From sequence record PV159336: DNA of 64,000 nucleotides; one strand, written 5' to 3'. A program made the position numbers and the translations under genes. This document shows positions 37,943 through 62,190 of the stretch, piece after piece. The DNA is from Escherichia phage W22. Position 1 is the stretch's first letter. Each line of letters opens with the position of its first letter. The notes beneath the pieces were generated by a model, which was not told where the DNA came from, ran no database searches, and saw only the letters and a program-made list of their open reading frames with translations.

Positions 37943-38212
37943 CTAAAATGATTCGTTTGTCTCCATAATATATTGCATTTCCAAATCTTCCATATGTTTC
38001 TTAAATTGGTAAACAATTTCCGATGGGGAAATATCTATATCAAAAAGTTCTTTTGTACCAGAATAAAACCTAATACCGTCAACAATAAGTCCACCATAAT
38101 AATCCCAATCACTTTCTCGTGAGAAAGGATTAGGTTCTTCATAATAGTAATCTACTTCAACAATAATAGGTTCTTTATTATCTTGTTTATACTCAAAATC
38201 AAAAGTGTTCAT
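37943..38212 (-). CDS. hypothetical protein
   Basis: 89-aa acidic ORF coupled upstream of glycosyltransferase gene. Confidence 0.35.
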   Translation of the reverse strand: MNTFDFEYKQDNKEPIIVEVDYYYEEPNPFSRESDWDYYGGLIVDGIRFYSGTKELFDIDISPSEIVYQFKKHMEDLEMQYIMETNESF

Positions 38213-39156
38213 TATAAATCCTCGATAAGCAGTCTGCGGGTTTCATTTAAATCATCAATATTGTAGTTATCTCTTACATATTTAGCAAGAGCCAATCCTT
38301 TCTCAATACAAACATCAGGAGATTCGATTAAGTATTCTACAATATCTTTCCACTCTTTAACTGAATCAGCAAAGAAGATTAGATCTTTAAATTCTTCAGT
38401 ATAGTAGTTCTCTCGTGGAGAACAAACGAGTGGCAAACCTTTAGCACCAGCCTCAAGAATTTTTAAATTACTTTTGGCATTATTAAAATGATTATTTACT
38501 AATGGAGCTATGGAGATTTGATGACCATCGTATGCTTCCATATAACACTCATAAGGACGAATACCTTCATAAACACAATCTGGTTGAATCTCTTCTTTAA
38601 TTTGCAACCATTGAGCACTACTTAACTCTTCGTGATCTCTACGAAATCCACATAAAGTTAAATCTTTACCAAAAGCAGGAAGAATTGCTAAATCATGTTT
38701 ATGTGTTTCACTTCCCGCCCAAACCAGTGGGCTTTTAGAATAACGATCTTTAGTAAGAACAAACTGCCCTTCATCAAAAGGTAGTCCGTTAGGCACAATA
38801 TGTACATTATCATTGTATTGGCTTAATTCAACCTTTAATGCTGGAGTTGTTGTAGTTACAAGATCGCTTCTTTCAAGGAACCATTTTAGGTCATCTCGGA
38901 TTTGACTTTCAAATAATCCTTCCAGCATATGCCCTTCAGGAATAATTAAAGAATCATCCAGATCCATTACCAATTTAAACCCAAGTTGTTTAAGAGCCAG
39001 GAAACCTGGCTTTCCACGAGTTGGTACTCCATTGAATACAAAAATATTATGCTTAGGATTAATAGTCAGTTTGCGTTTATATGGCAAAATGATTCTATGA
39101 AAATCACATACACTATACCTTTCATGTCCACGTGTGTCAAGAATAATATTAGGCAT
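38212..39156 (-). CDS. glycosyltransferase, GT-B fold (GT4-like), paralog 1
   Basis: C-terminal KILEAGAKGLPLVCSP resembles GT4 donor-binding motif; clear paralog of adjacent gene. Confidence 0.5.
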   Translation of the reverse strand: MPNIILDTRGHERYSVCDFHRIILPYKRKLTINPKHNIFVFNGVPTRGKPGFLALKQLGFKLVMDLDDSLIIPEGHMLEGLFESQIRDDLKWFLERSDLVTTTTPALKVELSQYNDNVHIVPNGLPFDEGQFVLTKDRYSKSPLVWAGSETHKHDLAILPAFGKDLTLCGFRRDHEELSSAQWLQIKEEIQPDCVYEGIRPYECYMEAYDGHQISIAPLVNNHFNNAKSNLKILEAGAKGLPLVCSPRENYYTEEFKDLIFFADSVKEWKDIVEYLIESPDVCIEKGLALAKYVRDNYNIDDLNETRRLLIEDL

Positions 39157-39167
39157 ATGGCTCCTTG

Positions 39168-40181
39168 TTAAAGACTTTCAATAACTTGACGACGCAGTTC
39201 ATTGGCATCTGCAAGATTATAATTAAGACGAACGTGTTCTGCAAGCATCATACCACGATCTTCTGTGTATCTAGGGTTCCTCATTAGCTTGACAACTTCA
39301 TAATGCCAAGATGCTTTAGAGTCTGCATAAATAACAGCCTTTGCATCTACCGGATTGAAGTACGGCAGCACAGGAGAACAGATAATAGGAAGACCCTTTG
39401 CACCTGCTTCCAAAATCTTCAAATTGCTTTTACAGTTGTTGAAGTCATTATCTACCAGAGGAGCAATTGCAATACTGTGACCGTCATACACAGACATATA
39501 CTCACCTAAATTTTTAATAGCTGGTTTATACTGTGCATTTGGAATTTTACGTTTTACTTTAACCCACTCCGCAGTAGTTAGATACTGACTATTATTTCCA
39601 ACAGGTGCAGAAGGATACACTTCATACCCTGCAATTGTCAATAGCGTATCATCAAATGTGTTAGCTACAAGAGATAAATCAGGTTCATGGCTTGCTCCTC
39701 CAGCCCAAACGATAGGCGTGTCAGAATAACGGTCTTTTGTCAAAGTAAATTGACCTTCATCGTAAGGTAGTGCGTTTCTAATAACGACAACATTACGATT
39801 TAAATGACGAATTTTGTAAGCTAGGTATTCTGTTGTTACAGTAACAACATCTGCTAACTTAACCATCTCTACAATAGTCTTTGAGTGATTAGTAAATACG
39901 CCAGCCATATAATGTTCAGGATTAAGCGAATAAAAGTCATCTAAATCAACAATAATCTTAACACCTTGTGCCTTCAGGCGTTTAACTTCGTCTGATCCAC
40001 GAGAATACACTCTATTAAAAACTAAAACGTCTTTCTTAGGCTTAAACGTATTTCCCGCAAATGGCATTACAATACGATGGTAATCACAACCACTGCCTAA
40101 CTTATTATCACACTTAAGTACAGGAGTATTAGGATTTACCATATTTTTGAGCCTCCTCATAAGAGATAAAAGTTTTACCAT
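39168..40181 (-). CDS. glycosyltransferase, GT-B fold (GT4-like), paralog 2
   Basis: Shares blocks with 38212..39156 (LTKDRYS..P.VWAG, YDGH.I.IAPLV.N.FNN.KSNLKILEAGAKGLP); tandem duplication. Confidence 0.5.
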   Translation of the reverse strand: MVKLLSLMRRLKNMVNPNTPVLKCDNKLGSGCDYHRIVMPFAGNTFKPKKDVLVFNRVYSRGSDEVKRLKAQGVKIIVDLDDFYSLNPEHYMAGVFTNHSKTIVEMVKLADVVTVTTEYLAYKIRHLNRNVVVIRNALPYDEGQFTLTKDRYSDTPIVWAGGASHEPDLSLVANTFDDTLLTIAGYEVYPSAPVGNNSQYLTTAEWVKVKRKIPNAQYKPAIKNLGEYMSVYDGHSIAIAPLVDNDFNNCKSNLKILEAGAKGLPIICSPVLPYFNPVDAKAVIYADSKASWHYEVVKLMRNPRYTEDRGMMLAEHVRLNYNLADANELRRQVIESL

Positions 40182-40815
40182 TGCGAAGATCCTCCAGTGA
40201 TTGTTTATATTGTTCCCAGTTTACACCAATCCCCTGTTCTTTCTCTTCTTTTGACAGATTCGCAAAAGGTAAAGGGTTGTCTCCAAACACATCATCAGGA
40301 TGGATAAACGCCATAATTCGAATAGGACATGGTACGCCCTGAATACCTCGGTTCAAACCTGCTAGTGGAACGCGCTGAATCCACTCTGCATCTTCATATC
40401 CATAACCGTGGGTGTATGAGCGGAAATAGCCAGCTTTCTCAATAACTGCACGGGAATACATACCAAACTGGCACATACCTAGTTCCCAAATAACCACTTC
40501 ACCTTCAATACCTTTTACTTTATCTTTAAAGTATTCAGGCATACCAAAGAAATCCCAGCCATTTTCCTTAGCTTGTTTTACAAAATATGTTTCCCAACCT
40601 GGCACAACCGGATAGCAATCATCATCAAAAATAAACCAGTAATCATACCCTTCATCATAAAACTTTTTCATCAGTTCATTACGAGCATATGCAACACCTT
40701 TTCGTTCCCGATCATACTGTACAACAAAAGTAGCATTAGGATCAGTCACAAGATAATCTTTAAGAGGACGCTTACCTACAGTAATAACACCAACACCAAT
40801 TTTTGTATTTTCCAA
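40129..40815 (-). CDS. glycosyltransferase, GT-A fold (DXD motif)
   Basis: 228 aa; YDYWFIFDDDCYP (DXD) and downstream GYGYEDAEW motif. Confidence 0.5.
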   Translation of the reverse strand: MENTKIGVGVITVGKRPLKDYLVTDPNATFVVQYDRERKGVAYARNELMKKFYDEGYDYWFIFDDDCYPVVPGWETYFVKQAKENGWDFFGMPEYFKDKVKGIEGEVVIWELGMCQFGMYSRAVIEKAGYFRSYTHGYGYEDAEWIQRVPLAGLNRGIQGVPCPIRIMAFIHPDDVFGDNPLPFANLSKEEKEQGIGVNWEQYKQSLEDLRNGKTFISYEEAQKYGKS

Positions 40816-40824
40816 AATAACTCC

Positions 40825-41388
40825 TTAAATAATTTTATTCATGTCTTGACAATGTAAAAGGTGTGAAACAGCTTTTCTAGGATCATCATTACCTAAACGG
40901 TATGTGTGAAATAAATATAACCCACGTAGTAAACCTAGCCTTTTATTGTTAGCGTGTAATGCTTTAGAGAAAATTATATCAAACTGTATTGATCTTTCCT
41001 CAAAAGGGATTTCATTCCACAAACTCTTACGAAAGAGAAGAAAGAATCCTGCTAAGATAGCATCTGTAGGTACTTCCTCTATTGAGTTTCCCCATTCTAG
41101 ATGTGCTCTTTTTGCAATCTCAATGTGGTGTAATATATTTGGATCTTCACTTCTTTCATTATTAAATAATTGATATGTTGATCCCAGTCTATTACAAGAT
41201 GCACCAAGAACATCAAAATCAGGATTTGAACGGACTATTGATTCCAACCAAGCAGGTTGTTCTGGAAGAAGAAACATTGTATCAATGTCTCTTAGGCAAA
41301 TCCAACTATCTTCTGGTAAGACACTTATTGTGTCATTGATACCTTTTCCAATATCTCCAGAAAGATAGGGAGTTATGTGAAATATCAT
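40825..41388 (-). CDS. possible GT-A-like glycosyltransferase / hypothetical
   Basis: 187 aa; ICLRDIDTMF could be a DXD-type motif; weak. Confidence 0.3.
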   Translation of the reverse strand: MIFHITPYLSGDIGKGINDTISVLPEDSWICLRDIDTMFLLPEQPAWLESIVRSNPDFDVLGASCNRLGSTYQLFNNERSEDPNILHHIEIAKRAHLEWGNSIEEVPTDAILAGFFLLFRKSLWNEIPFEERSIQFDIIFSKALHANNKRLGLLRGLYLFHTYRLGNDDPRKAVSHLLHCQDMNKII

Positions 41389-43405: not shown

Positions 43406-44002
43406 TTACTCGAACCAATCGTCGCCAGCGCCAAACGCTTTAACTACATCGTAAATGTCAAGCCCAGCTTTACCTACACCATATGCTTTCAGTTTCCATT
43501 CGCTATCTTCTCGCACCAGGGAGGCAACGTGGCAAATGGTGTTACCTGCAAGTTCTGGAGCCAAGAAGTCAAAGTCCAGCAGTTCAACATTACGTTCATC
43601 ATCGAAGATTTTAAGGAAACCTTCGGTAGCGTGACCAAGGCGTTTCTTACCCGTTTCGTCATCAATAGTAATTACGAATGCAATTTCCTGTGCTTCAGCA
43701 GAGATATTATCCAGTGTAACATCAATCTGCTCCATCTGTCCTACACCATCACGAACATCTTCACCTGCAAAAGTAGAACGTTCAGGATCAAATTTCTGCG
43801 CGTAGCACACCAGGTGACGAGGAGACAACAGTTCCGGCAGACCAGATGCATTGTGTCGGCAAATCAGAGCACTAACATCCAGATCCAGTTTTTCGTTAGA
43901 TTTCCAAGAGAATTCCAGACGAATGCGTTTCAGTGCTGGTGCGATCTTTTTCAGAGAAACTTTTTCGCTAGAACCTTTTTTCAGGGAAATTTTCTGAGTC
44001 AT
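43406..44002 (-). CDS. terD: TerD-domain protein (tellurite-resistance TerD/TerZ/TerE family)
   Basis: 198 aa; MTQKISLKKGSSEKVSLKK..., LDLDVSALI, IAFVITIDDE, EWKLKAYGVGKAGL track the TerD domain along its whole length (compared with E. coli TerD from memory). Confidence 0.85.
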   Translation of the reverse strand: MTQKISLKKGSSEKVSLKKIAPALKRIRLEFSWKSNEKLDLDVSALICRHNASGLPELLSPRHLVCYAQKFDPERSTFAGEDVRDGVGQMEQIDVTLDNISAEAQEIAFVITIDDETGKKRLGHATEGFLKIFDDERNVELLDFDFLAPELAGNTICHVASLVREDSEWKLKAYGVGKAGLDIYDVVKAFGAGDDWFE

Positions 44003-44074: not shown

Positions 44075-44869
44075 TTACGCTTTTGCTCCGAATTTTTTAA
44101 CCCACTCACCAAACTCTTCGGATAACAGTTTATCGTAAAGTTCTTCATCAGACAAGGACAAATCTGCAATACCGATAAAATCAACATTATCGTACTCTTT
44201 TGCCAAGTCTTTCAGGAATTTAAAGTTTGCATTACCTACACCAACCATAAACCAGTAAACAGGCGTATTGCGGTGTTTGTTCAGTAAGCTACGTACTGCT
44301 GAAGTATCCATGTTTTCCCCGTCAGTTTGGAAGAAAATCATTGCAGGAGTACGATCAACTTGTGCATCAGTATCTACAACCTGTTCTACAACAGTACGTG
44401 TTACTTCTACAAGTTCTTTTTTACCAGTTAGTTTAGCAAGGAAACCCTTAGCCGGGACTTCTTCATACTCAACGACTTCACGTGTAATATTTTTCATAGG
44501 TACACTACCGAAGTATGTATCATAGATCTCTTGCATTACTGGAGCATAAGCAGTACCACCGTTGATGCAAACATTAGACATGCAAGAGCCGACATAATCA
44601 TCATACACATCAGCCGTTGCAGGAGGCAGTTCAAAAGAAGAACTATTGAAAGCCCACATGTCAATCTGTGCATTATCATCAAACTTCATACCAAACGGCA
44701 GCAGTTTACCTACAAAATCACTAACAGTGCCATCACGATACAGCTCACACATACTACCCGAAATATCTAAGGCGCTACCGACACGAAGAACAACATCGTT
44801 AATCTTTTTCTTACGCAGAGATACAGTAAGAGTTTCTTGACGTTTTTTAAGACTGATTTTATTGGACAT
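44075..44869 (-). CDS. von Willebrand factor A domain protein (TerY/TerF-C-like)
   Basis: MIDAS motif DISGSM, then GGTAY and FFQTDGENMD; N-terminus ISLKKRQETLTVSLRKK echoes TerD first strand. Confidence 0.65.
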   Translation of the reverse strand: MSNKISLKKRQETLTVSLRKKKINDVVLRVGSALDISGSMCELYRDGTVSDFVGKLLPFGMKFDDNAQIDMWAFNSSSFELPPATADVYDDYVGSCMSNVCINGGTAYAPVMQEIYDTYFGSVPMKNITREVVEYEEVPAKGFLAKLTGKKELVEVTRTVVEQVVDTDAQVDRTPAMIFFQTDGENMDTSAVRSLLNKHRNTPVYWFMVGVGNANFKFLKDLAKEYDNVDFIGIADLSLSDEELYDKLLSEEFGEWVKKFGAKA

Positions 44870-45896: not shown

Positions 45897-46129
45897 TACA
45901 CATTCTCCTCTTTTACCAATTCCATCGTTGAACTATCAAAACCATCTTTAGAAGAATAGGTATAGACAGAACGTAGTTCTCGCAGGACAGTAAATACATT
46001 AGGATCATCTAACCAAGCATCCTGGAGGAGAACATAACGATCTTCATTGTCGTACTGGACAGCGATCATAGAACCAGACAGTTTGTAAATTTTAATATTC
46101 ATAATATATTGCTCCTTAAAGTAGACCAC
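45896..46129 (-). CDS. hypothetical small protein
   Basis: 77-aa ORF overlapping upstream gene end. Confidence 0.3.
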   Translation of the reverse strand: MVYFKEQYIMNIKIYKLSGSMIAVQYDNEDRYVLLQDAWLDDPNVFTVLRELRSVYTYSSKDGFDSSTMELVKEENV

Positions 46130-47219
46130 GTTTAACAGTTTGAATCATACCATCTTCAAGAGATTGCACTTCTTGAATATAATCAATACGAGCAGCACGG
46201 GCTTCAGTGTTGATTCGGTTAGTTTCTTCCAACATTTTAACTAAGTTTTCTTGATCGCGACGTAATGTTTCAATATCCAATACTTGACGATTAGCAAGTT
46301 GCGTAGCTTCAATTTGGTTTTGTGAAGCCAGATCACTACCCATTGCAATAGCAGCATTAAATTCATTCAGTACATTGTTCTGTGTATCGGCTGCTTTCTT
46401 CTGGCGTAGACTTTCAATATACATAGAAAAGTTTGCAGAGTAAGCAGGGATAACATTATTCACAATGTTACGTGCTGATCGCATCAAACTTGCAGATACT
46501 TTCTGCATACTTTGTACACGTGGCCCCATCTGAACACACAGTAAACGCAAGGCTTTCAGGTCTGCAATACGAATTTCAAGCAGATCCATAGTATCACGAG
46601 TACGTTGACGCTCTTCTACTTCATTTTCAGGTAGTGTATTAAGGCGAACTTCTTCTTTTTCATAAGTAGCTGTTAGAAGCTCTATATCCCTGTTTAAGCT
46701 AAGAGCATATTTTGCAATAGCCTCTTCTAAACGTTGCAGATATCGTAAAGAATCTTCTTCTTTTTTCAAGTCTGTTTGGAGTGTCTTTACCAAACCTTCA
46801 ATACGATTATTGATGGTGTCAAATTCACCAAACAAATCTTCTTTCATACCTAATACTTTCTTAACTAGTTTACCTAAGCCTTTAGATTGTTTAATAGAGT
46901 TAGGATCAAGTTGCTTTGCTTGCTTAATAAGTGCAGTTAAACGTTCACTCATTTCATCTCCCTGAGATGAACGCTGGTGTTTAAGCACTTCAGCATTAAG
47001 GTTACGAAGAGTAAGTCCTGCATCAGCACCAACTTGTTCAATCTCTTCACGAGACATTGGAGGCAGCATTTGTACAGGTCGTGCAACAGCAGGGGCATAT
47101 ACAGGGCTTGCATCCATAGCACTTGGAGCAAACAAAGACTTACTTTTTTCTGTTGTTGCCGTGAATACACTCATTTCAGACGGTTTGCTTTTTACGGCAC
47201 TGATAAAAGGACTGGACAT
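46116..47219 (-). CDS. TelA-like (toxic anion resistance) coiled-coil protein, tentative
   Basis: 367 aa, predominantly helical/coiled-coil; call rests largely on size, composition and neighbourhood with TerD/TerC/vWA. Confidence 0.4.
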   Translation of the reverse strand: MSSPFISAVKSKPSEMSVFTATTEKSKSLFAPSAMDASPVYAPAVARPVQMLPPMSREEIEQVGADAGLTLRNLNAEVLKHQRSSQGDEMSERLTALIKQAKQLDPNSIKQSKGLGKLVKKVLGMKEDLFGEFDTINNRIEGLVKTLQTDLKKEEDSLRYLQRLEEAIAKYALSLNRDIELLTATYEKEEVRLNTLPENEVEERQRTRDTMDLLEIRIADLKALRLLCVQMGPRVQSMQKVSASLMRSARNIVNNVIPAYSANFSMYIESLRQKKAADTQNNVLNEFNAAIAMGSDLASQNQIEATQLANRQVLDIETLRRDQENLVKMLEETNRINTEARAARIDYIQEVQSLEDGMIQTVKRGLL

Positions 47220-48997: not shown

Positions 48998-49975
48998 TTA
49001 AGCAACAGCCTGGTCTTCTTTTTCAGGGAAGATTAAACTTGCAATAACACCCAGCCCCAGAGTACCTAACACAATATACATACTGATCGTCGGATCAATG
49101 TGTGCTGGCAGGAAACTCACTTTTGCGTGCAGAGTTTCTGCAAACGGGTGATACATCAGTTTTACACCCACAAATACCAGGACTACGATAACTGCTTTCT
49201 CCAGATGAACCAAATATTTCAGTGCAACACTAAGGACAAAGAACAGAGCACGTAGACCTAAAATTGCACACAGCATTGAAGAAAATACAAGCAGAGGTTC
49301 TTGTGTCACTGCAATTACTGCTGGAACAGAGTCTACTGCAAAGATTACGTCAACCATTTCCATTACAAACACACAAACCAATGCAGGAGTTGCTACACGA
49401 ACACCATTTTTGATTGTGAAGAACTTCTCACCATCCATCTGATCAGATACAGGGAACAGCTTACGAACAATGCGAGTAGCCCAGTGTTTAGAGTAATCAA
49501 CTTCTGCGTCATTATCTCCAGCGAATACCATTTTAGCTGCACAGAAAAGGATGACCGCACCGAAGAAGATATTAACATACCAGCCCAAACTCAACAAGTA
49601 AGTACCTACTGCTACAAACACACCTCGGAAGACAATCGCACCTGCAATACCCCAAAGTAGAATCTTGTGTTGCAAGTGTGTACTTTTAATACCAAAACTT
49701 GCGAATACTGCCACAAATACTACTAAGTTATCTACAGAAAGAGATTTCTCCAACACATACCCACTCAAGAACAAGCTCGCAAAATCAGCACCGTGTTGGA
49801 AGTATACAAAACCATAGTAGGCTAATGATACCCCAATCCAGAAAATTGACCAGCCAATTGCAGATTTAAATGAAATTTCTTTGTTTTCCCTGTGTCCAAA
49901 GAAATCAATACAAATCGACAAGACTAAAATACCCACTAAAACAACCACATCAATAATTGGGAAACCCAGTTGCAT
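48998..49975 (-). CDS. terC: TerC-family integral membrane protein
   Basis: 325 aa, multiple TM helices; signature motifs LEKSLSVDN and second-repeat FAVDSVPA characteristic of TerC family. Confidence 0.8.
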   Translation of the reverse strand: MQLGFPIIDVVVLVGILVLSICIDFFGHRENKEISFKSAIGWSIFWIGVSLAYYGFVYFQHGADFASLFLSGYVLEKSLSVDNLVVFVAVFASFGIKSTHLQHKILLWGIAGAIVFRGVFVAVGTYLLSLGWYVNIFFGAVILFCAAKMVFAGDNDAEVDYSKHWATRIVRKLFPVSDQMDGEKFFTIKNGVRVATPALVCVFVMEMVDVIFAVDSVPAVIAVTQEPLLVFSSMLCAILGLRALFFVLSVALKYLVHLEKAVIVVLVFVGVKLMYHPFAETLHAKVSFLPAHIDPTISMYIVLGTLGLGVIASLIFPEKEDQAVA

Positions 49976-50052: not shown

Positions 50053-50301
50053 CTAGTTCAGTTCTGTAATTTTAAGTTTATCTTCTTTGTTAATGATAGG
50101 GAAAGCTACAGCATCACCTACATCATCAATAAAGCAAACAGCAAGACCACCTTCCACTTTGCTAACCTGGCCATTAAAGGCGTGATACGGGGCAGGAACA
50201 ATATCTCCATCTTCAAGGAGAATAGCCTCATAAACCTTACCAACAGTACAATCACGAGTGTTTATAAATTTTTCAAGCACTTCAACATTTACTTTACGCA
50301 T
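50053..50301 (-). CDS. hypothetical small protein
   Basis: 82-aa ORF. Confidence 0.35.
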   Translation of the reverse strand: MRKVNVEVLEKFINTRDCTVGKVYEAILLEDGDIVPAPYHAFNGQVSKVEGGLAVCFIDDVGDAVAFPIINKEDKLKITELN

Positions 50302-50315
50302 ATAAAAATCCTCTC

Positions 50316-50522
50316 TTATTTGTTAGATTGAAAGATACCACGAAGTACCGCAAGAATGAACGTCACACAGACTACACTCCAAAACGTTACAGGAACATGA
50401 TGCCAGTCTAAACCGATAATGTCAATCATATAGTTGTATGCTAAAAGCAGTAGCCAACTAGGGATTAACACAATCAAGAATACAACAATAAAACAACCTA
50501 ATACTGCTAAAACACCTGCCAT
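50316..50522 (-). CDS. small membrane protein
   Basis: 68 aa, two hydrophobic helices. Confidence 0.35.
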   Translation of the reverse strand: MAGVLAVLGCFIVVFLIVLIPSWLLLLAYNYMIDIIGLDWHHVPVTFWSVVCVTFILAVLRGIFQSNK

Positions 50523-50531
50523 ACTTTCTCC

Positions 50532-51248
50532 TTATTTCAGTTTGTAAACAATTACATTTAAACCTTTGTTTACTAGAGTTTCTTCGATCATAAGTTTTAC
50601 AATATTCCAAGAACCTCCAGCCAAACCACAACCAAGCATTGGTAAACCTACAATTTTACCGCCTGAAGATACAACATCGTCTCCCATACTATCTAACGCA
50701 TTGTAGATAGCTTCATAATTCAGGTCACGCTTACCTTCCTCACGACGACTATAACCATATTGTCCATATAAATTATAAATTGTCAAATTGTTTTCTGTAT
50801 ACTTAGTAAACGTACCTAATTTTTTATAATCACCACGTTTAGTGGCACAATCTGCTTTAAACGCACCAGGCCACTTGCTTTTAATTTTTGGTGCAATACC
50901 ACTACCCATAGTGCAAAAACAGTTACAGCAGTGTGCTATAGCGTCTATATCGCCTCTCTCGGCTGCTGCTAAAAGATCACCGTATACCTCAATGATACCT
51001 GCTGGATAACTTGTTACAATTTCATCTTCCCAGTACATTTGCTCTACACCACCGATCAGTGCAAAGTTTTGTGTAATGCGATCATCAATATAATTAAGAC
51101 CTGAAACATACACAGCATATTCATCCTGTGCTGTAATGCCTTGTACACGAATTCTTAAGACACCATCTTTATCTGTTGCTACACGCCCAAAATCTTTTTC
51201 TGTAATATTGGTGATAGGATCTCCGAAAGTCGTCACTTTATTAGACAT
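50532..51248 (-). CDS. macro domain protein (ADP-ribose binding/processing)
   Basis: DAIAHCCNCFCTMGSGIAPKI and VGLPMLGCGLAGGSW resemble macro-domain blocks; start taken at internal ATG 51248 overlapping PRTase stop. Confidence 0.5.
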   Translation of the reverse strand: MSNKVTTFGDPITNITEKDFGRVATDKDGVLRIRVQGITAQDEYAVYVSGLNYIDDRITQNFALIGGVEQMYWEDEIVTSYPAGIIEVYGDLLAAAERGDIDAIAHCCNCFCTMGSGIAPKIKSKWPGAFKADCATKRGDYKKLGTFTKYTENNLTIYNLYGQYGYSRREEGKRDLNYEAIYNALDSMGDDVVSSGGKIVGLPMLGCGLAGGSWNIVKLMIEETLVNKGLNVIVYKLK

Positions 51249-52098
51249 AATAATCCCCTTTAACATTAGATTTGTTGATAATGTTGCTTTCAAAAAATTG
51301 ACGCAGGAAATCAAAGTTCTCTTTGTATTTTTCAATATTATTGTAACCTTCTGCAAGGCAACCAAAGAACAGTTGTTCTACATAATACAAAGGAAGTTGT
51401 GAAAGTGCAATTTTAAAATCAACTTCGCTTTGACTCATTAGATACTTAATAGGACGAACCAAACATTTAGCATCAGTTTCTTGCTTAATCATTTTAATAA
51501 AAGCTGCCAGGTTATTGATATAGTTGAAGTTAAGTGCAGCTTCGGTGTTGGCTTCTGTACCTTCATACTTTGCAAAGTACAGGAAAAACGTATCGTTTTC
51601 AACACCTTCTTTGTCTAAAATTTCAATAAGTTTTTCTTCGTGTGTTCCTGTAATATTAACATCATCAATGAAAATCAGAGTTTTATTACCCCAGAAATCA
51701 CGATTGATAGAGAAAGTGTCACCATCGATCAAAGCCTTACGATCTTCTTTGCTAAGAAATCCATAATCATTGATATAACTCACTTTACGATGAACGATAT
51801 CCCACTCTACTGCTTTACCTCCTTTGATAGAGATTAGGTAGTTGAGGTGATCTACAAAATGTTCAGATAACACTGTAGCTGCATTTTTCACATAGTTATA
51901 TGGAGATGGAATAACAACAAAACTTTCATTTACTAGTCGTTCTTCATATTTAGAAAAGAAACTTTCAGCCAGAATGCGTCCCATTCTTTTTGCTGCCTGG
52001 TTACTACCAAACTTTAGTTTGGAATAATCTGCAATGTTAAATTTTGCTTCCTTCAGGTTAGTAAAAGTATTAGCAAAATGTTGAATTTGATTACGCAT
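51241..52098 (-). CDS. phosphoribosyltransferase (type I PRTase fold) domain protein
   Basis: PRPP-binding motif TLIFIDDVNITGTHEE (hydrophobic-DD-hydrophobic-x-TG); 285 aa with uncharacterised C-terminal half. Confidence 0.55.
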   Translation of the reverse strand: MRNQIQHFANTFTNLKEAKFNIADYSKLKFGSNQAAKRMGRILAESFFSKYEERLVNESFVVIPSPYNYVKNAATVLSEHFVDHLNYLISIKGGKAVEWDIVHRKVSYINDYGFLSKEDRKALIDGDTFSINRDFWGNKTLIFIDDVNITGTHEEKLIEILDKEGVENDTFFLYFAKYEGTEANTEAALNFNYINNLAAFIKMIKQETDAKCLVRPIKYLMSQSEVDFKIALSQLPLYYVEQLFFGCLAEGYNNIEKYKENFDFLRQFFESNIINKSNVKGDYYV

Positions 52099-52747
52099 TA
52101 ATAAGTTCCTCTTTTTTAAGTTTAGCCAACAAGTCTTCTGGATTAATAATATGACAGAACTTCATCCCTATGTCAACAGCTTTTCCATCATAAATCAAAC
52201 TATCTCCAACGTGTAAAATCTCCTCTGGTGCGAGATCAAACGTTACCATTTCATCAAAAGAGAGTTTAAAAAACCTAGGATCTGGTTTACACAAGCAAAA
52301 CTCATCAGAAAAATGCATAAAGTCAAATGGTAATTTTGTTAAGCCAGAATATACAGCTAAGAAACTACCTGGTACAAAATTAGTATTGCTCTTAATACTC
52401 AAAGAATAGATTGAACTTAGCTCTTCCAACTTCTTGCAAAGCTCAGGGTTCAATATTGGAGGATGTTTTATAAACATTGCTAAACAGTCTCTTTTTAACC
52501 CATCTACTTTATCAAGATCAATGTTCAAACGAGTAGAAAGTGTTTCCCAAGCATTCCTAGACGTTCCACAAATGCCTTTTTCTGCTTTTAAATCCAGGAG
52601 AGTTTTTACCTCTTTATATACAGTAGCTGCTTCTGCCTCAGAACAAGAGGCATACTCGGCAATAACCTTGTTGCGTTCTTCTGCATACAAAGGATTAGCA
52701 GTAATAAGAGTATTCCATACATCAAAAGAAATATGCTTAACAGTCAT
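52091..52747 (-). CDS. HAD-superfamily hydrolase
   Basis: Motif I HISFDVWNTLI (DxxxT(L), dehalogenase-like variant) and motif IV HVGDSLIYD; start set at ATG 52747 with GGAGGA RBS. Confidence 0.55.
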   Translation of the reverse strand: MTVKHISFDVWNTLITANPLYAEERNKVIAEYASCSEAEAATVYKEVKTLLDLKAEKGICGTSRNAWETLSTRLNIDLDKVDGLKRDCLAMFIKHPPILNPELCKKLEELSSIYSLSIKSNTNFVPGSFLAVYSGLTKLPFDFMHFSDEFCLCKPDPRFFKLSFDEMVTFDLAPEEILHVGDSLIYDGKAVDIGMKFCHIINPEDLLAKLKKEELINA

Positions 52748-52749
52748 TT

Positions 52750-52905
52750 TTAATCCTCCGTCCAAAAGAATATCATCTGCTTAATTTTATTGATCTCTTG
52801 ATGTAGTAACTTTCCAGCATGTGATTGATCTTTAATATTGATAGCAAGAATTTCAAGCTCCGTTAGTTTTTCTTGGATAGCTTTATATTCATCATCTGTA
52901 AGCAT
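52750..52905 (-). CDS. small hypothetical protein (51 aa), not in ORF track
   Basis: ATG at 52905 to TAA at 52750-52752; stop abuts HAD RBS; coiled-coil-like sequence. Confidence 0.25.
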   Translation of the reverse strand: MLTDDEYKAIQEKLTELEILAINIKDQSHAGKLLHQEINKIKQMIFFWTED

Positions 52906-52916
52906 TTTCTTCCCCT

Positions 52917-53120
52917 TTAGAATGGTAATCTTTGTATGTCACTTATCCCCACACCCAGAAGTCTAGCAATATCCTTATCTAAAAGCAACTCTTTTTGTTC
53001 TAAAATGTTAATCAAATCTCCTAATACTTCTTTAATGTCACGATCATTTTTAGCAACGTGACCACCTGCGGTATCAACTTTATCTTTAAAAACAAAATAA
53101 TGATCCATAATACCCTCCAT
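52917..53120 (-). CDS. hypothetical small protein
   Basis: 67-aa ORF preceded by terminator and RBS. Confidence 0.35.
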   Translation of the reverse strand: MEGIMDHYFVFKDKVDTAGGHVAKNDRDIKEVLGDLINILEQKELLLDKDIARLLGVGISDIQRLPF

Positions 53121-53126
53121 ATAAAT

Positions 53127-53150
53127 AAAGGAGGCTTTCGCCTCCTTTTA
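53127..53150 (-). terminator. rho-independent terminator after AAA ATPase gene
   Basis: AAAGGAGGC-TTTC-GCCTCCTTT hairpin then TTTATTTAT on - strand. Confidence 0.5.
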
Positions 53151-53154: not shown

Positions 53155-54315
53155 TTAGTAAGAACGACCACCAAACACATACTCTGTGTAGTTTTTACGT
53201 TCTTTGTTTTTAATAACAACTTCAATGTTGTTACCTTTATCATCGGTGAACATAAAGTGATAACCGTCACCACCCATTGTACGAATGTGTTTTTCATCAT
53301 ACGTTAGCAAGATACGGTCTACACCCCAGTAGTAGTCACCTTCTTCATCTTTATCTTCTACGGTAACAATCCCTTCCATTTCAGGAAGATGCTCTTCTCC
53401 TGACTTATGATCTACAGCTACAACATAACGATTACCGCTAAACAAACCTTGTGCTGTCATACCGTCAATATCGGTATCTGACGAAACATCTGCTGTACGA
53501 TCTACACCGTTAACTTTCAGAAGTTTAACTTCTTTTGCAGCATAGCGGTGTTCAGTAATACTGATACCCATTAATGCAAGTGCATCAGAGAATTTGTCAT
53601 TAGGATAACGGTTAAGTTCTTCTACTAATGACTGAACAATATCAAAGTTCAAATCCACGGAGAGATTATAAAGCGTTTCAAAATCTGGTAAGAAGGCTTT
53701 GTTCTCCAGATTTTTAGCCAGATAATCATCCATAGTAGCTTTAGGTAGTTTCTTATAACTAAAACTGTAGAAAATACGGCTAGGACGATTACGCAAAAAT
53801 TCTGATACATAACCATCATTTTTAGTCAATACAAACAGCTTGTCATAACCACCAACACCATCCAGCAGGGTAAGCAAACCGTCTTGTGCATCTTTTTCAG
53901 CATACAGTTTATCAAATTCATCGATCATAATCATCACAGGTTGTGTGATTTTAGACATAAAATTGATAAAGCCTTCACCATTAAAAGCACTACCGATAGA
54001 AATAGTAGGAATACCCATTTCACGAAGAGCAGAAGACAGCATTTTAGCTTGCAAAGTTTTACCGCTACCTTTCGTACCCTCAAGGAGAACACCTGTGTTT
54101 TTACCTTTGCGGCTAAGGAACGTCTTGATAATACGTTCTGATTTATCATCAGTATCACCGTATGTTACTGAAGGGACTTCCATATCGTTTTTAGGATACA
54201 GGAAGAACTCGCCACTTTGAGTAACACCTACACCAAAAGTTCCTGCTGGAATTTCTTCAATATCTGTACCAGACTTCTGACGCAGGAAGATTTGATTGCC
54301 GAATACTGTAAACAT
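53155..54315 (-). CDS. AAA+-type ATPase
   Basis: Walker A GTKGSGKT and Walker B VMIMIDEFD; 386 aa. Confidence 0.6.
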   Translation of the reverse strand: MFTVFGNQIFLRQKSGTDIEEIPAGTFGVGVTQSGEFFLYPKNDMEVPSVTYGDTDDKSERIIKTFLSRKGKNTGVLLEGTKGSGKTLQAKMLSSALREMGIPTISIGSAFNGEGFINFMSKITQPVMIMIDEFDKLYAEKDAQDGLLTLLDGVGGYDKLFVLTKNDGYVSEFLRNRPSRIFYSFSYKKLPKATMDDYLAKNLENKAFLPDFETLYNLSVDLNFDIVQSLVEELNRYPNDKFSDALALMGISITEHRYAAKEVKLLKVNGVDRTADVSSDTDIDGMTAQGLFSGNRYVVAVDHKSGEEHLPEMEGIVTVEDKDEEGDYYWGVDRILLTYDEKHIRTMGGDGYHFMFTDDKGNNIEVVIKNKERKNYTEYVFGGRSY

Positions 54316-58937: not shown

Positions 58938-61712
58938 TTAGTTTACCAGTTTATTTATGTCTGGTAAAAGATTTATTTCACCTAAGAAATCACCTTCACC
59001 TTCCTCTAGCCAACTCTCATATGCTTGTGCATGATTATAGTTACCATCAAAAGAATCTGCAACAAATTTTTCTACAGTTTTTCGAGATGTGCCAGCGCCA
59101 AATACACCAAGTTTAATACCATTGATCGGTAAAGTAGGGCTTGTTGGTACTTTCTCTGTTGCAACACGGTTGATATCTATAATCTCCTGTACGGTTGTAT
59201 TCCATTGTAAGCATTTAACACAACGGGTGTGCGCTACATACAGTAGGTTTCGCTCTGCCTCTTCTAGTCCTACCCATTCACCAGTCTTTTTATCATAGTT
59301 GGAAGGAAAATCATTAGCAACAATAACCTGATCCCACTCCAAACCTTTAGACTTATGTGCTGTAGTCAGTGTGACTTTTGCTGTAGGAGAATTTCTATGC
59401 GTTCTAAGTGTATGTGCTATAGTGTTTGCCTTACCAGAAACTACAATGTTTAACAAGCGTTTAGCATCTGGATCAGCCTCTGCACACTCAACAAATTCAT
59501 TCCAGTCTGCGTAAGGTAATACAGTTTCATGTTTTACTTTCTCAATATCTCCTCTCCGAAGAGCATTAACACTATCTACCATAGAGATAAAATCCCTGGT
59601 ATCTACGTTAATAATAATTTCTTCCCCATCTGCAATACGATCCATTGCCTCCATAAGCAAGGTTAAATTCTTGCGAAAGATGATAGTGTAAGGTTTTGTA
59701 TAGTCTACAACATCTGATTTGTAGCTACCTACTACAGTATCAAAGCCTTTACCAACCAAAGGATGACGCAAAGGTTCTTTATCACTTAAAATCATATTCG
59801 CAATGTTTGCCACTTTGGGGCCAAAACGGAAGCAAGCAGTTAATGGAAGCTCTGCCCCATACTTAGCTGTTTCAATCATCATATTAGAGCTACCTCTAAA
59901 TTGATAAATGCAGTTATGGCTAAGAATTTCATTGCCAAAGAAGTTAGCAGTATCCTCTACTTCAATATCATAATAGATACCATCACTATCTACAATGTCC
60001 ACAATTTCTTCTGCCGTTACAGTATCACCATCTTTTACTAACACAGACATGCCTTTAAACAAACCCGCTGCCGGAATTAAATTATATTTGGCAGTGTTCA
60101 CAGAGGACATGCATTCTTTTAAAGATGCAAACGGAACTATTTCAAGGATCTTTTGTGCAAAACTCAATGCTTCACGATAAGAATTGAAATATTTACGTAC
60201 ACGGTAACGACCTTCCAATTTAGCAACACTTACGCTTACACCTGCTTCAATGAGTGAGGCATAGATTGGCATTTCACTTTCTGTCCACTCAAAGCTAACT
60301 TGTGTTCCTTTACAACCTTGTGCTCGCAAAGTCACTGTTAACATTTTTCTTGCATCTACTGTACAATTGATGCTGTGCCAATGTGGATAAGCAAAATGAT
60401 AATCTTTATCCTCTAAAAGTTTAAAACCATTTTGTCCGAATTGTTCAAAGATATTGTTGATCCTTTCTTGATTAATACCGCGTGAACTTGCCTCAAATAC
60501 ACAAGTAGGAATGCCATATTGTAAACTGTATGCCATTTCTTTTTCCATAGCAGCTTCACGGTTTTCAACAATATCCAACACCCACAACTTCTGTGCTTTT
60601 TCAGAACGTGTACGTTGCCCCAGTTTAGAAAAACCTTCTTTATCATCGAATTTGTTAGTGATCCCTACTCGGAAACCTAAATCTTTTCTCCACATTAGGT
60701 ATACCACCATCTGATCATCTTTCAGAACATAAGGTGAAGCCCAAATACGATGGTTATGTGTCATATCTAAAGTCTTACCTTTAGCAGTAATAATATTCCT
60801 ACCTTTTGTACGTGTAGATAAAGTTTTATTTGTTACTTTTCTAAATGTAACTTTACCGTTAGAATAAGACTCTACCTTATCACCGATTTGCAGGTCTTTC
60901 ATTGTAACCTGACCATTTTCGGTATTAAGTACCGTGTTTTCTGACACACATTGGAATTCATCACCAACTACCACAATTTGTTTGGCAGATTTAGCATTCC
61001 GCAGAATAGACAAGAATGCAGGGTTAACATCCTGGAATTCATCCCCAAAAATAATGTCATAACCAAGATCAGCACCAGACAATTCAAACAATTTTACATA
61101 GGTGTCATGCGTCATCAAAGTATCTGTGTTAGGGTCAATGCGCTCTCGCCACAATTGTTTTGCATACTTAACTACTTCTGTAATTAGTTTGTGTTCGTTA
61201 ATACCTTTTCTTTTAATATCTGCAAGATGTACACTAGGAAAATGTTTACGGCTGATAAAAGGATCATCCGAAAATTCAAACTTACCTACGGTTTGCTTGA
61301 TCATTAAACCAATCATAGCACGAGTTAAAAGTGTTTTCCCTCGTTTATCAATAAGATTATTAATCTTAAATTTCTTTGCTATCTCACTACCTGTACCTGC
61401 AACGTTAACATACTGTCCTTCTGGTCGTGACAGTTTTGCACGTAAACGATGATCCAGGAATTGATAGCAAATGGAATGCAATGTACGGCATTCTACATTT
61501 GGTGGCATCTTACGCCGTGCTTCTTCTGCCATGCTTTTATTGAAAGCTAAGTAAAGAATGCGATCTTCTGTACTGTTAGCCAGCAAATAAAGTGTTGACG
61601 TTTTTCCTGATCCAGATTTAGCTTGGATAGTTAAAAACCGATGATCTGGAAAAGCCTCCTTAATAGCTGTTTGCTCTTCTGTTGGAGTAAAACTCAACTC
61701 TTTCTTAGCCAT
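58938..61712 (-). CDS. UvrD/PcrA/Rep-like SF1 DNA helicase, intein-containing
   Basis: Walker A AKSGSGKT, motif II FGDEFQD, split motif III VVGDEFQ / CIYQFRGSS, motif VI TAHKSKGLEWDQV; start moved to ATG 61712. Confidence 0.75.
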   Translation of the reverse strand: MAKKELSFTPTEEQTAIKEAFPDHRFLTIQAKSGSGKTSTLYLLANSTEDRILYLAFNKSMAEEARRKMPPNVECRTLHSICYQFLDHRLRAKLSRPEGQYVNVAGTGSEIAKKFKINNLIDKRGKTLLTRAMIGLMIKQTVGKFEFSDDPFISRKHFPSVHLADIKRKGINEHKLITEVVKYAKQLWRERIDPNTDTLMTHDTYVKLFELSGADLGYDIIFGDEFQDVNPAFLSILRNAKSAKQIVVVGDEFQCVSENTVLNTENGQVTMKDLQIGDKVESYSNGKVTFRKVTNKTLSTRTKGRNIITAKGKTLDMTHNHRIWASPYVLKDDQMVVYLMWRKDLGFRVGITNKFDDKEGFSKLGQRTRSEKAQKLWVLDIVENREAAMEKEMAYSLQYGIPTCVFEASSRGINQERINNIFEQFGQNGFKLLEDKDYHFAYPHWHSINCTVDARKMLTVTLRAQGCKGTQVSFEWTESEMPIYASLIEAGVSVSVAKLEGRYRVRKYFNSYREALSFAQKILEIVPFASLKECMSSVNTAKYNLIPAAGLFKGMSVLVKDGDTVTAEEIVDIVDSDGIYYDIEVEDTANFFGNEILSHNCIYQFRGSSNMMIETAKYGAELPLTACFRFGPKVANIANMILSDKEPLRHPLVGKGFDTVVGSYKSDVVDYTKPYTIIFRKNLTLLMEAMDRIADGEEIIINVDTRDFISMVDSVNALRRGDIEKVKHETVLPYADWNEFVECAEADPDAKRLLNIVVSGKANTIAHTLRTHRNSPTAKVTLTTAHKSKGLEWDQVIVANDFPSNYDKKTGEWVGLEEAERNLLYVAHTRCVKCLQWNTTVQEIIDINRVATEKVPTSPTLPINGIKLGVFGAGTSRKTVEKFVADSFDGNYNHAQAYESWLEEGEGDFLGEINLLPDINKLVN
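59913..60950 (-). mobile_element. intein (346 aa) inserted in helicase motif III
   Basis: Starts Cys (CVSENTVLNTENG), block B TLDMTHNH, C-terminal YYDIEVEDTANFFGNEILSHN followed by extein Cys. Confidence 0.55.
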
Positions 61713-61713
61713 T

Positions 61714-62190
61714 TCAACCTCTCTTAATTTGTTTAACAAGCATAGGAACAAAATCTCGTTTTAAAATTTGTTCAATAATATGATCAGGTAGCTGTTGGAA
61801 ATTATAATTAAACGCTACTGTTTCACCTTTAGGTGTTTCTACCCGCACATATAACATGTTGCGAAGTTTATCCACTTGTGCTGTATATTCTAAACCACGT
61901 AATTGATGCATTGCAAACATCAAATCATCAGTTTCAGTTTGGAATCTATCCCTTGTCTGCATCAAGGATAAGGCAAAAGGTAGATTTTCCCTAAGAGCCA
62001 CCTTCTTAGGCACTAGTGAAGGGAAATACTCCCCAATAACTTCCTGTGTAAGCTGAATACACTCTTTTTCAAGCTGGTTTTGTTCCTTGAGTTCACAAAC
62101 ACTTTTTTGTAAAGTGTTAACCTCTTTTTGCAAAGCTGCTAGTTGAGCACTTAACTTTCTTTTTTGATTACGACCGAAACGTTTAGACAT
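61714..62190 (-). CDS. hypothetical coiled-coil protein
   Basis: 158-aa ORF; stop overlaps helicase start. Confidence 0.4.
   Translation of the reverse strand: MSKRFGRNQKRKLSAQLAALQKEVNTLQKSVCELKEQNQLEKECIQLTQEVIGEYFPSLVPKKVALRENLPFALSLMQTRDRFQTETDDLMFAMHQLRGLEYTAQVDKLRNMLYVRVETPKGETVAFNYNFQQLPDHIIEQILKRDFVPMLVKQIKRG

Follow-up and report, generated by a model that had tools for sequence, protein, structure and literature searches.

A widely conserved HAD-PRTase_3 gene pair and a predicted anti-DarT macrodomain protein packed together in a phi92-like Escherichia phage

Three overlapping genes on the minus strand of Escherichia phage W22, a phi92-like Justusliebigvirus of E. coli, encode a HAD-superfamily hydrolase, a phosphoribosyltransferase (PRTase) of the PRTase_3 family and a protein with a macrodomain. 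We propose that this trio consists of two functional units that were packed together in phi92-like phages, and not of one pathway; for this explanation as a whole we estimate a probability of roughly 55%. The first unit is the HAD + PRTase_3 pair, which is widely conserved as an ancient, translationally coupled two-enzyme cassette and is sometimes one fused protein. The second unit is the macro protein, a predicted anti-DarT factor, whose probable role is to counter DarTG2. Each of the two units is a further example of an already known kind. The evidence is computational, covers protein families, folds and motifs as well as the linkage, fusion and distribution of the genes, and is described below, unit by unit.

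Gene order and surroundings of the locus

The window, i.e. the whole stretch of 64,000 nucleotides that was analysed (record PV159336), contains the three open reading frames at the positions that a preliminary description of this DNA had given (Table 1). Reading of the sequence showed that both junctions are 8-nt overlaps of the form ATGnnTAA. Profile searches, which had been set as a check on the motifs and families read from the sequence, returned matches for all three families. Two small conserved ORFs are packed upstream of the HAD gene, and homologues of both are found in the same position in six related loci (L001, L006-L009 and L023); neither gave a Pfam match. A terminator-like hairpin at the 3' side of an AAA ATPase gene might mark the 5' limit of the trio's transcription unit; this is only suggestive, since terminator counts overall in the region were not above those of shuffled sequences. 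Downstream of the macro gene lie genes for a 68-aa and an 82-aa protein, again with no Pfam match for either; synteny of the 68-aa gene with the macro gene extends to relatives.

Table 1. Positions of the trio, its motifs and junctions, and neighbouring features in the window
Feature	Position	Strand	Remarks
HAD-superfamily hydrolase, subfamily IA-like, helical C1 cap	52747-52091	-	218 aa; ATG at 52747, stop ending 52091; PF00702, phrog_14393, AF2, Foldseek
HAD motif FDVWNTL	52726-52706	-	residues 8-14
HAD motif GDSLIYD	52207-52187	-	residues 181-187
HAD stop / PRTase start overlap ATGCGTAA	52098-52091	-	sequence read; translational coupling
PRTase_3 (PF15610, 'ComF-like'), type I phosphoribosyltransferase	52098-51241	-	285 aa
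PRPP-binding loop TLIFIDDVNITGT	51681-51643	-	PRTase residues 140-152
PRTase stop / macro start overlap ATGTCTAA	51248-51241	-	sequence read; phi92 lineage only
Macro protein, N-terminal domain + macrodomain fusion	51248-50532	-	238 aa; PF01661 2.2e-7
N-terminal domain of macro protein	50985-51248	-	residues 1-~85; lineage-specific
Glycine-rich macro block GCGLAGG	50633-50613	-
67-aa ORF	52917-53120	-	small conserved; packed upstream of HAD gene
51-aa ORF	52750-52905	-	small conserved; directly upstream of HAD gene
Terminator-like hairpin	53127..53148	-	9-bp stem + T-rich tail; 3' of AAA ATPase gene
68-aa predicted two-TM protein	50316-50522	-	downstream of macro gene
82-aa protein	50053-50301	-	downstream of macro gene; phrog_17459 match
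TerC/Alx-family integral membrane protein	48998..49975	-	PF03741 1.2e-38; TIGR03718 2.4e-96, above cutoff
TelA (toxic anion resistance protein)	46116..47219	-	PF05816 4.2e-34
vWA-TerF-like protein	44075..44869	-	PF10138 1.2e-38
TerD-domain protein	43406..44002	-	PF02342 5.1e-28

The PRTase_3 and HAD proteins

The PRTase matches PF15610 over profile positions 14-264 of 264 (1.1e-41; 143.5 bits with a cutoff of 28.7), and its rhizobial and Bacteroidetes relatives also match this family. It consists of a core of about residues 1-180 and a conserved all-helical C-terminal domain at about residues 185-280, in which R215, K218, E250 and Y252 are invariant. A C-terminal extension of ~130 aa had been described earlier; the region is about 100 aa long, is covered by the PF15610 model and is thus a conserved part of the family. 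The PRPP-binding loop that had been noticed is present and intact, LIFIDDVNITGT, with a hydrophobic strand and two acidic residues followed by T-G-T, and D145, D146, T150 and G151 are invariant across 55 homologues. Whether the enzyme is PRPP-synthetase-like or a base PRTase had been left to HMM and structure comparison. The AF2 model (pLDDT 92) has a ComF-like type I fold, and the nearest structures are ComF and purine PRTases. The core is structurally nearest to ComF, but identity is 12%, the N-terminal Cys cluster (zinc finger) is missing, there is an extra conserved C-terminal helical domain and the gene lies in a phage Ter cluster. With neither a zinc finger nor a competence context, the protein does not belong to ComF/ComFC. 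The database label 'orotate phosphoribosyltransferase' for this protein is misleading. The searchable literature yielded no biochemical data on a PF15610 protein or on the HAD paired with it, and no experimental study of the Ter-linked module.

The HAD protein matches PF00702 in a profile search (8.2e-6; 26.8 bits, cutoff 26.4) and phrog_14393 at 2.8e-119. The best Foldseek PDB matches of its AF2 model (pLDDT 96.4) are HAD-IA proteins (TMq 0.6-0.8), and the structural neighbours comprise dehalogenases, azetidine-carboxylate hydrolase and epoxysuccinate hydrolase, but also phosphatases. Both HAD motifs read from the sequence are present. The motif I Asp, the motif II Ser/Thr, the motif III Lys and the motif IV acidic pair of HAD phosphatases are all found on a capped Rossmannoid fold; D9, S120/N121/T122, K154 and G181-D182...D187 are invariant or nearly so among 31 homologues. 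Motif I reads sFD-V-W-N-TL, with the second Asp absent and Trp at Asp+2. This general acid (DxDxT) is likewise absent in the phage, rhizobial, Bacteroidetes and fused homologues, which have Trp, or Tyr in one case. Motif I thereby resembles the DxYGT of 2-haloacid dehalogenases, yet the Mg-type motif IV is kept. Because the clade has Trp or Tyr in place of the Asp+2 general acid, the phosphatase step is uncertain. Dephosphorylation by the HAD, as first suggested, is still plausible, but the suggestion is weakened by the Trp found throughout the clade. The protein carries the database label 'phosphatase', which is misleading.

Conservation of the HAD-PRTase_3 cassette

A HAD gene lies directly upstream of the PRTase_3 gene in all 38 related phage, plasmid and bacterial loci examined. 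This order was seen at 22/22 phage loci and 15/15 genome loci, and likewise for CcrColossus, Rhizobium phage Y65 and plasmid pRL10. The two genes overlap in 27 of the 38 loci, and the identical 8-nt form occurs in 10, which represent several distinct lineages; given this recurrence among loci, the overlap exceeds chance. Furthermore, three proteins (P0310, P0329 and P0416) are single-chain HAD-PRTase_3 fusions in which the order is kept. A fourth (P0355), in which Pfam calls PRTase_3 only, shares this HAD motif I at the N-terminus, and a fifth (P0306) has the domain order PRTase-HAD-PRTase_3. By adjacency, overlaps and fusions, PRTase_3 is thus obligately associated with a HAD fold. The PRTase was found in 156 phage records, and the PRTase_3 family has 858 cluster representatives.

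Ter genes and the possible function of the cassette

In the window, TerC is encoded 1.3 kb downstream, and TelA, vWA-TerF and TerD within 8 kb on the same strand. Ter genes lie within 10 kb of the pair in the window, in 12 of the 22 phage loci and in two Bacteroidetes MAGs. No Ter gene was found within 10 kb at any of the 12 rhizobial loci, nor at about half of the phage loci. Since many loci have no Ter gene within this distance, the cassette can work without Ter proteins, or at least without linked ones.

Anantharaman, Iyer and Aravind reportedly predicted in 2012 a Ter-linked module of PRTase and HAD that makes a 'nucleoside-like metabolite'. A biosynthetic role for Ter-linked PRTase and HAD has been described for bacteria and phages (PMC7824862, PMC8115787), and in 2021 Iyer et al. 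(PMC7824862) noted the module in Acinetobacter phage ME3 'and certain other related smaller tailed phages'. The window fits this description in that PF15610 and HAD genes lie inside a TerC-TelA-vWA(TerF)-TerD cluster of a large tailed phage. It differs in three ways. Firstly, the module is minimal, with a single PRTase and a single HAD; the neighbourhood of the pair in the window showed neither an ATP-grasp gene nor a TIM-barrel lyase, a second PRTase or TerB. Secondly, many phages and rhizobia have the cassette with no Ter gene inside 10 kb. Lastly, the HAD belongs to the clade with Trp at Asp+2.

From these comparisons we infer PRPP use, an acceptor, a HAD reaction and cooperation with Ter proteins. 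The PRTase would most likely transfer 5-phosphoribose from PRPP to a specific base-like acceptor, which the conserved helical C-terminal domain may help to bind. The HAD would then process the product of the PRTase, most likely by removing the phosphate, and the resulting riboside would be the 'nucleoside-like metabolite' of the Ter systems. This product would act with the co-encoded membrane-associated proteins TerD, vWA-TerF, TelA and TerC during infection; signalling, remodelling of the envelope and the exclusion of competing phages are possible roles.

The two-step logic of the cassette is experimentally proven for gPRT-PRP ribofuranosyltransferases, in which a PRPP-dependent gPRT is followed by a HAD-type phosphatase (PMC11231755). 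This raises the question whether the HAD and PRTase_3 act instead on a macromolecule (a glycan, a protein, DNA or an RNA end), by phosphoribosylation and then removal of the 5-phosphate, to yield a modified phage or host surface or a modified nucleic acid. The HAD-type domain of a gPRT-PRP protein (7shg) was Foldseek rank 7 for the window HAD model (E 1e-9), but this likeness is no better than that to many HAD-IA proteins, and the 50-60 best structural matches of the PRTase model did not include 7shg. The acceptor of gPRT-PRP is a glycan and its genes lie in O-antigen or capsule loci. The window does contain four glycosyltransferase-like genes at a distance of about 10 kb, ComF, the closest relative by structure, has its role in DNA handling and XaC1-like phages have the pair in an RNA-repair neighbourhood; still, the pair is not consistently linked to genes for glycan or nucleic-acid modification, and the many highly conserved polar residues of both proteins fit a defined small substrate. 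Action on a macromolecule seems quite improbable.

The loci without Ter genes could also imply that the pair is an autonomous conflict module for counter-defence, exclusion or toxicity, which works independently of Ter and makes or destroys a nucleotide-like signal or antimetabolite, or drains PRPP, with the Ter linkage reflecting frequent co-carriage. On Rhizobium plasmid pRL10 the pair is found by itself beside repA, and it also occurs alone in other rhizobial genomes and in about half of the phage lineages. Its carriers are phages, plasmids and, in a patchy pattern, bacteria, its family is small in terms of cluster representatives, and defence effectors with a PRTase domain exist (e.g. ShosT, 8zvb). 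Against this, PADLOC gave no match for the HAD or the PRTase, and several independent phage lineages, as well as Bacteroidetes, share the linkage to Ter. We consider a module of this kind unlikely. A more tentative extension of the two-unit explanation is that the HAD(Trp)-PRTase_3 pair is a mobile, self-contained machine that makes a novel ribotide or riboside by unusual HAD chemistry. The product might then be a Ter ligand or signal, or a signal for immune evasion or exclusion by the phage, and the macro protein of phi92-like phages might also act on it.

The macro protein as a relative of AdfM

The macrodomain proper (about residues 85-238) is of the SCO6735/Bt_1257/T4-Tk.4 (AdfM) type. It follows a lineage-specific N-terminal domain; most homologues are about 150 aa long and are without such a domain. 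The nearest solved relatives are SCO6735 (5e3b) and Bt_1257 (~4e-15), followed by TARG1 and DarG. BLASTP with Tk.4 of the T-even phage ime09 gave 34% identity over 155 aa (E 1e-20), and tblastn matched the tk.4 region in T-even phages.

The glycine-rich blocks that had been noticed are present as MGSGIA and GCGLAGG. N109, Q163, G206, G208 and G212 do not vary among 30 family members, one of them a T-even Tk.4, and N109, Q163 and the GCGLAGG loop correspond to N27, Q85 and the GCGLAGG loop of SCO6735. Alignments with 5e3b, 2fg1 and 4j5r place a Gln at the position of TARG1 K84 and DarG K80, together with the conserved Asn, the Gly-rich loop and a long mobile loop. Where SCO6735 has Val25 and Lys34, the window protein has Cys and Ser. 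The work that defined the active-site features of SCO6735 showed that this enzyme acts on ADPr-thymidine in DNA, which it cleaves, and that it rescues cells from DarT (PMC9411070). T4 Tk.4, named AdfM (anti-DarT factor Macrodomain), protects T4 from DarTG2 (bioRxiv 10.1101/2025.11.20.689424). The window protein is homologous to both and shares the Gln/Asn/GCGLAGG signature and the long mobile loop; it differs by its identity of only 34% to the T-even Tk.4 compared and by the extra N-terminal domain of ~85 aa that was acquired by fusion.

DarG was the best match in NCBIfam and PADLOC (5.5e-13 and 1e-13), both below cutoff, and the window protein is in the same ALC1/TARG1-like class. It scores 48.9 bits with a cutoff of 250, however, and only model positions 4-147 of 338 align. 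It has Gln for the catalytic Lys and lacks both a C-terminal DarT-binding domain and a DarT next to it; its neighbours are the PRTase and the 68-aa membrane protein. With a score below cutoff and the Lys, the DarT-binding domain and DarT all missing, it is not a DarG antitoxin. Orphan antitoxin-like enzymes, which it resembles, have been described in phages (PMC11481870, PMC11825919).

The sequence and structural relationships suggest that the macro protein is an ADP-ribosyl glycohydrolase of the AdfM type, which would most likely strip thymidine-linked ADP-ribose from phage DNA and so neutralise DarTG2-type defence; the DarT2 target is deduced from its relatives. Removal of ADP-ribosyl marks, one of several roles in the preliminary description, is thus the best reading for this domain, but as a separate counter-defence function.

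Linkage of the macro gene to the pair

The preliminary description had joined the three proteins in one pathway. In its fullest form, a PRPP step and dephosphorylation by the HAD would be followed by handling of an ADP-ribose derivative by the macro protein, either to rebuild NAD+ or to process an ADP-ribose metabolite against NAD-depleting defences. All three genes are indeed translationally coupled in the window phage. However, the macro gene adjoins the pair only in phages of the Stephanstirmvirinae type, and in all other lineages it either maps to a different part of the genome or is not contained in the flanks that were sequenced. Members of the macro family are present in 2,915 phage records, far more than the PRTase, and at least 94% of the macro-bearing records lack the PRTase.

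The overlap of the PRTase and macro genes is confined to the phi92 lineage. In one relative (L023) the macro gene begins 10 nt past the PRTase stop, and in two others (L008 and L009) one or two ORFs lie between the genes. The first ~75 aa of a 188-aa intervening ORF are homologous to the N-terminal domain of the window macro protein (BLASTP 2e-5). The overlap is therefore a side effect of a deletion by which the N-terminal domain of the upstream gene was joined to the macro gene, and as a recent, lineage-specific fusion it argues against a single pathway. Synteny of the macro gene and the pair is kept over three Stephanstirmvirinae lineages (65-100% PRTase identity). Because of this, and because the macro gene is now co-translated, a local functional link between them is conceivable.

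Known phage routes to NAD are NARP1, with a Prs-like Adps and a NadV-like Namat, and NARP2, with NadV/NadM; NARP1-AP adds a Poa1p-like macro protein (Adpp) to Adps and Namat. NARP1-AP is a real phage operon that joins a macrodomain with PRPP-type enzymes and is the closest analogue of the proposed NAD/ADP-ribose route. Here the enzyme is a ComF-like type I PRTase and the macro protein is SCO6735/AdfM-like, matching SCO6735 at 4e-15 but Poa1p only at 0.0097, and NARP1 has no HAD enzyme. None of the components of NARP1, NARP1-AP or NARP2 match the window proteins, so the locus does not belong to these systems and the idea of NAD salvage is not upheld. In Rhizobium phage Y65 the pair is near an NMN adenylyltransferase/NUDIX gene. 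Dephosphorylation of NMN would oppose NAD synthesis. Taken together, a single ADP-ribose/NAD pathway is very unlikely, and we retain the explanation by two units.

Implications

Ter and TelA genes have been tied for decades to resistance against tellurite, colicins and phages. The phi92-like and BASEL coliphages combine a stripped-down Ter set with a single HAD-PRTase cassette in a genetically tractable host. Since the cassette is also found by itself on plasmids and fused into one protein, it offers a simple route to the product and to its dependence on Ter. Lastly, the macro protein as a homologue of AdfM predicts that Stephanstirmvirinae would be resistant to DarTG2, which bears on their host range and on the choice of phages for therapy.

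Organization of the Gene Trio

The window comes from an E. coli myovirus of the phi92-like group (Justusliebigvirus, Stephanstirmvirinae) and encodes a HAD hydrolase, a phosphoribosyltransferase (PRTase) and a macro domain protein in genes joined by two 8-nt ATGnnTAA overlaps. The preliminary description had reported three ORFs with 8-nt overlaps and had named these families. Its coordinates were exact, and profile searches confirmed the families by matches to PF15610 (PRTase_3, ComF-like type I phosphoribosyltransferases; 1e-41), PF00702 (8e-6) and PF01661 (2e-7); PHROG matches of the trio were phrog_13415, phrog_14393 and phrog_335. The 2.2-kb trio is present in 67 phage records at 95-99.7% identity. 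Public annotations of these genes are inconsistent and partly misleading: among the labels are 'orotate phosphoribosyltransferase', 'phosphatase' (given to the macro gene) and, in one Klebsiella phage record, 'Zot-like toxin'. Several records named 'Campylobacter phage' share 98% identity with these coliphages, suggesting that their hosts are mislabelled or that they are contaminated.

The trio lies in a tightly packed minus-strand run with the order NrdD, NrdG, AAA ATPase, terminator-like hairpin, two small ORFs, HAD, PRTase, macro, a 68-aa two-TM ORF, an 82-aa ORF, TerC, further ORFs, TelA, vWA-TerF and TerD. The seven genes at 53120-50053 appear to form a single, tightly packed transcription unit. 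Counts in promoter and terminator scans were not above those of shuffles, the hairpin 3' of the AAA ATPase gene being the only noteworthy one, and a tRNA scan found none. The AAA ATPase gene is kept upstream of the trio in phi92-like loci (L001, L006, L007) and in the Klebsiella/Citrobacter-type relatives L008 and L009.

Elsewhere in the window, a UvrD-like SF1 helicase contains an intein (Pfam Intein_splicing/Hint) at about residues 267-613. The orthologue in phage KMB37 (L001 7073-8809) comprises only 579 aa and is therefore intein-free. Among four consecutive glycosyltransferase-like genes, one (40129-40815) has a weak, sub-threshold match to the TET-associated glycosyltransferase family TAGT (E 7e-5), which may hint at DNA or surface glycan modification.

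Coordinates of genes and other features in the window and in two related loci
Feature	Location	Strand	Remarks
AAA ATPase gene	53155-54315	minus	phrog_2376
Terminator-like hairpin	53127-53148	minus	strong; 3' of AAA ATPase gene
HAD gene	52747-52091	minus	218 aa
PRTase gene	52098-51241	minus	285 aa
Macro gene	51248-50532	minus	238 aa
TerC gene	48998-49975	minus	same-strand run downstream of trio
TelA gene	46116-47219	minus	downstream of TerC
vWA-TerF gene	44075-44869	minus	downstream of TelA
TerD gene	43406-44002	minus	downstream of vWA-TerF
UvrD-like SF1 helicase gene	58938-61751	minus	937 aa; intein
Glycosyltransferase-like genes	38212-41388	minus	four consecutive genes
188-aa ORF	L008 9505-10071; L009 4024-4590		between PRTase and macro genes; Klebsiella/Citrobacter-type relatives

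The HAD and PRTase_3 Genes Form One Unit

The HAD and PRTase genes are one unit. The comparison covered 22 phage and 15 genome loci, to which the annotated records of CcrColossus, Rhizobium phage Y65 and plasmid pRL10 were added. Every locus examined encodes a HAD homologue directly upstream of the PRTase, the HAD stop overlaps the PRTase start in 27 of 38 loci, and the identical 8-nt junction recurs in 10 loci from several lineages. An exhaustive profile search of the PRTase_3 family gave 858 cluster representatives (259 at E ≤ 1e-30). Metagenomic members include proteins with HAD and PRTase_3 fused in one chain, the domains following the gene order from N to C terminus (P0310, P0329, P0355, P0416), a PRTase-HAD-PRTase_3 fusion (P0306) and tandem forms that combine PRTase_3 with a second PRTase domain (P0318, P0340, P0398). 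All fused HAD domains retain the D-x-W-G-T motif.

The neighborhood of the trio is a phage-borne system of tellurite-resistance-type (Ter) genes, and Anantharaman et al. in 2012 reportedly predicted a Ter-linked nucleoside-like metabolite. This prediction is repeated in PMC8115787, and a role of phage Ter systems in competition with superinfecting phages has been proposed (Iyer et al., PMC7824862). A literature search found no experimental work on PF15610, phage Ter genes or Stephanstirmvirinae Ter genes. Of the 22 phage loci, 12 have Ter genes at most 10 kb from the pair, as do two Bacteroidetes MAGs. Ter genes were absent within 10 kb in the XaC1-like phages, several other phage lineages and all rhizobial loci; this is a statement of lower sensitivity, since Ter genes in related loci were sought by single-sequence phmmer with window proteins and divergent ones may escape.

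XaC1-like phages carry the pair between an RNA ligase gene and a gene for a DUF2828/DUF7788 protein, and its setting there is RNA repair and translation, not Ter. On plasmid pRL10 of Rhizobium johnstonii (NC_008381.1 107669-109142; L042 9670-11143) the pair is isolated, with a 14-nt overlap, beside repA and with no Ter genes nearby, and Sinorhizobium and Ensifer genomes contain comparable stand-alone pairs (L028-L039). As the cassette is found in Ter-free loci, whether XaC1-like, rhizobial or alone on pRL10, it is therefore regarded as older and more autonomous than the Ter context. PADLOC gave no match to a defence system for HAD or PRTase; a Ter-independent conflict role of the pair is a less probable reading.

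In XaC1-like jumbo phages (L002 10967-12562, L004 10941-12527) the protein encoded 3' of the pair has ~530 aa, and genes for RNA ligase, 2H-SAK, CCA-adding enzyme, NUDIX, PTH2 and a ribosome-hibernation factor are neighbors. In Rhizobium phage RHph_Y65 (L025 5834-6406, 10186-11436) the pair has a nucleotide-metabolism neighborhood without annotated Ter genes, with a gene annotated as NMN adenylyltransferase/NUDIX nearby and a PurZ-like '2-aminooxy adenylosuccinate synthetase' a few kb away.

Predicted Chemistry of the Cassette

The PRTase has a confident AF2 model (pLDDT 92) and an invariant PRPP loop. Its C-terminal region had been viewed as a novel extension, a view that does not hold: this helical domain of ~100 aa lies inside the PF15610 model and is conserved across the family, with R215, K218, E250 and Y252 invariant. 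Structural searches with it returned only generic helical-repeat matches, such as 5nr4, and no informative one. The domain probably helps to bind the acceptor.

The HAD (AF2 model, pLDDT 96) belongs to the HAD-IA enzymes and has a helical cap. It has structural neighbors among phosphatases (HDHD4/NANP), dehalogenases, azetidine-2-carboxylate hydrolase, cis-epoxysuccinate hydrolases and proteins of unknown function, and the seventh-ranked match is the HAD-type domain of the PRPP-dependent polysaccharide ribofuranosyltransferase 7shg. The nucleophile Asp is conserved, as are motifs II, III and IV. In HAD phosphatases the Asp+2 residue protonates the leaving group; dehalogenases have Tyr here instead, phosphonatase Ala and P-type ATPases Thr. 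In the cassette this position is Trp in all phage, bacterial and fused homologues, except for Tyr in one. The Mg-type motif IV favors phosphoryl chemistry, and the HAD would carry out a phosphatase step, with the real caveat that Trp stands in place of the Asp+2 general acid. Lack of this Asp may indicate an anomeric or anhydride phosphate as substrate. The gPRT-PRP enzymes are a proven precedent for phosphoribosylation from PRPP followed by removal of the 5-phosphate (PMC11231755). Ribosylation of a macromolecule by HAD and PRTase_3 is proposed with lower confidence.

The Macro Domain Protein

The macro gene is common in phages and separate from the pair. By tblastn the domain was found in 2,915 phage records versus 156 for the PRTase, and most homologues have ~150 aa. 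Only Stephanstirmvirinae-type loci (the window, L001, L006-L009 and L023) have the macro gene next to the pair. L002, L004 and L010 carry a homologue at a distance of 7-8 kb, the ±10-kb flanks in L013 have none, though a contig of equal length supplied one, and none was found in the remaining loci. The preliminary description had proposed that all three genes form a single pathway of nucleotide or ADP-ribose metabolism or NAD salvage. Its observations stand and its interpretation is partly supported, and the single three-gene pathway is what the distribution and family tests did not bear out. NAD/ADP-ribose salvage does have a genuine analogue in NARP1-AP, which consists of Adps, a Poa1p-like macro protein and Namat. 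However, no defining NARP1-AP component matches window proteins and the macro gene is unlinked to the pair outside one subfamily, and salvage by the trio is rejected in favor of two units.

The window macro protein has ~85 additional N-terminal amino acids that are homologous to the start of the 188-aa ORF of L008 and L009 (BLASTP 2e-5), the first ~75 aa of which match this domain. The macro gene of L023, which encodes 157 aa, begins 10 nt past the PRTase stop. Because of this homology and this spacing, the 8-nt PRTase/macro overlap is attributed to a lineage-specific deletion and fusion. The C-terminal half of the 188-aa ORF has an ExxE-rich motif and is MazG-like in appearance, a candidate assignment for which Pfam gave no match.

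The closest solved relatives of the macro domain are SCO6735 and Bt_1257 (about 4e-15), followed by TARG1 and DarG. Gln163 occupies the position of the catalytic Lys of TARG1 and DarG, Asn109 is the counterpart of SCO6735 Asn27, and the long mobile loop and the GCGLAGG loop are also present; across 30 family members Gln163, Asn109 and, in the GCGLAGG loop, G206, G208 and G212 do not vary. SCO6735 cleaves ADP-ribose from thymidine in DNA and rescues cells from DarT (PMC9411070). The macro domain shares 34% identity with T-even Tk.4 (E 1e-20), and T4 Tk.4, recently named AdfM (anti-DarT factor Macrodomain), was shown by a transposon screen and a clean knockout to protect T4 from the DNA ADP-ribosylating defence DarTG2 (bioRxiv 10.1101/2025.11.20.689424). 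Judged by these sequence relationships, the window protein is best read as a putative AdfM-type anti-DarTG2 enzyme. Both the HAD-PRTase_3 cassette and the macro protein belong to known kinds, the former predicted and the latter recently validated. The point of interest is what the HAD(Trp)-PRTase_3 cassette makes and by which chemistry, a question that phi92-like phages make experimentally accessible.
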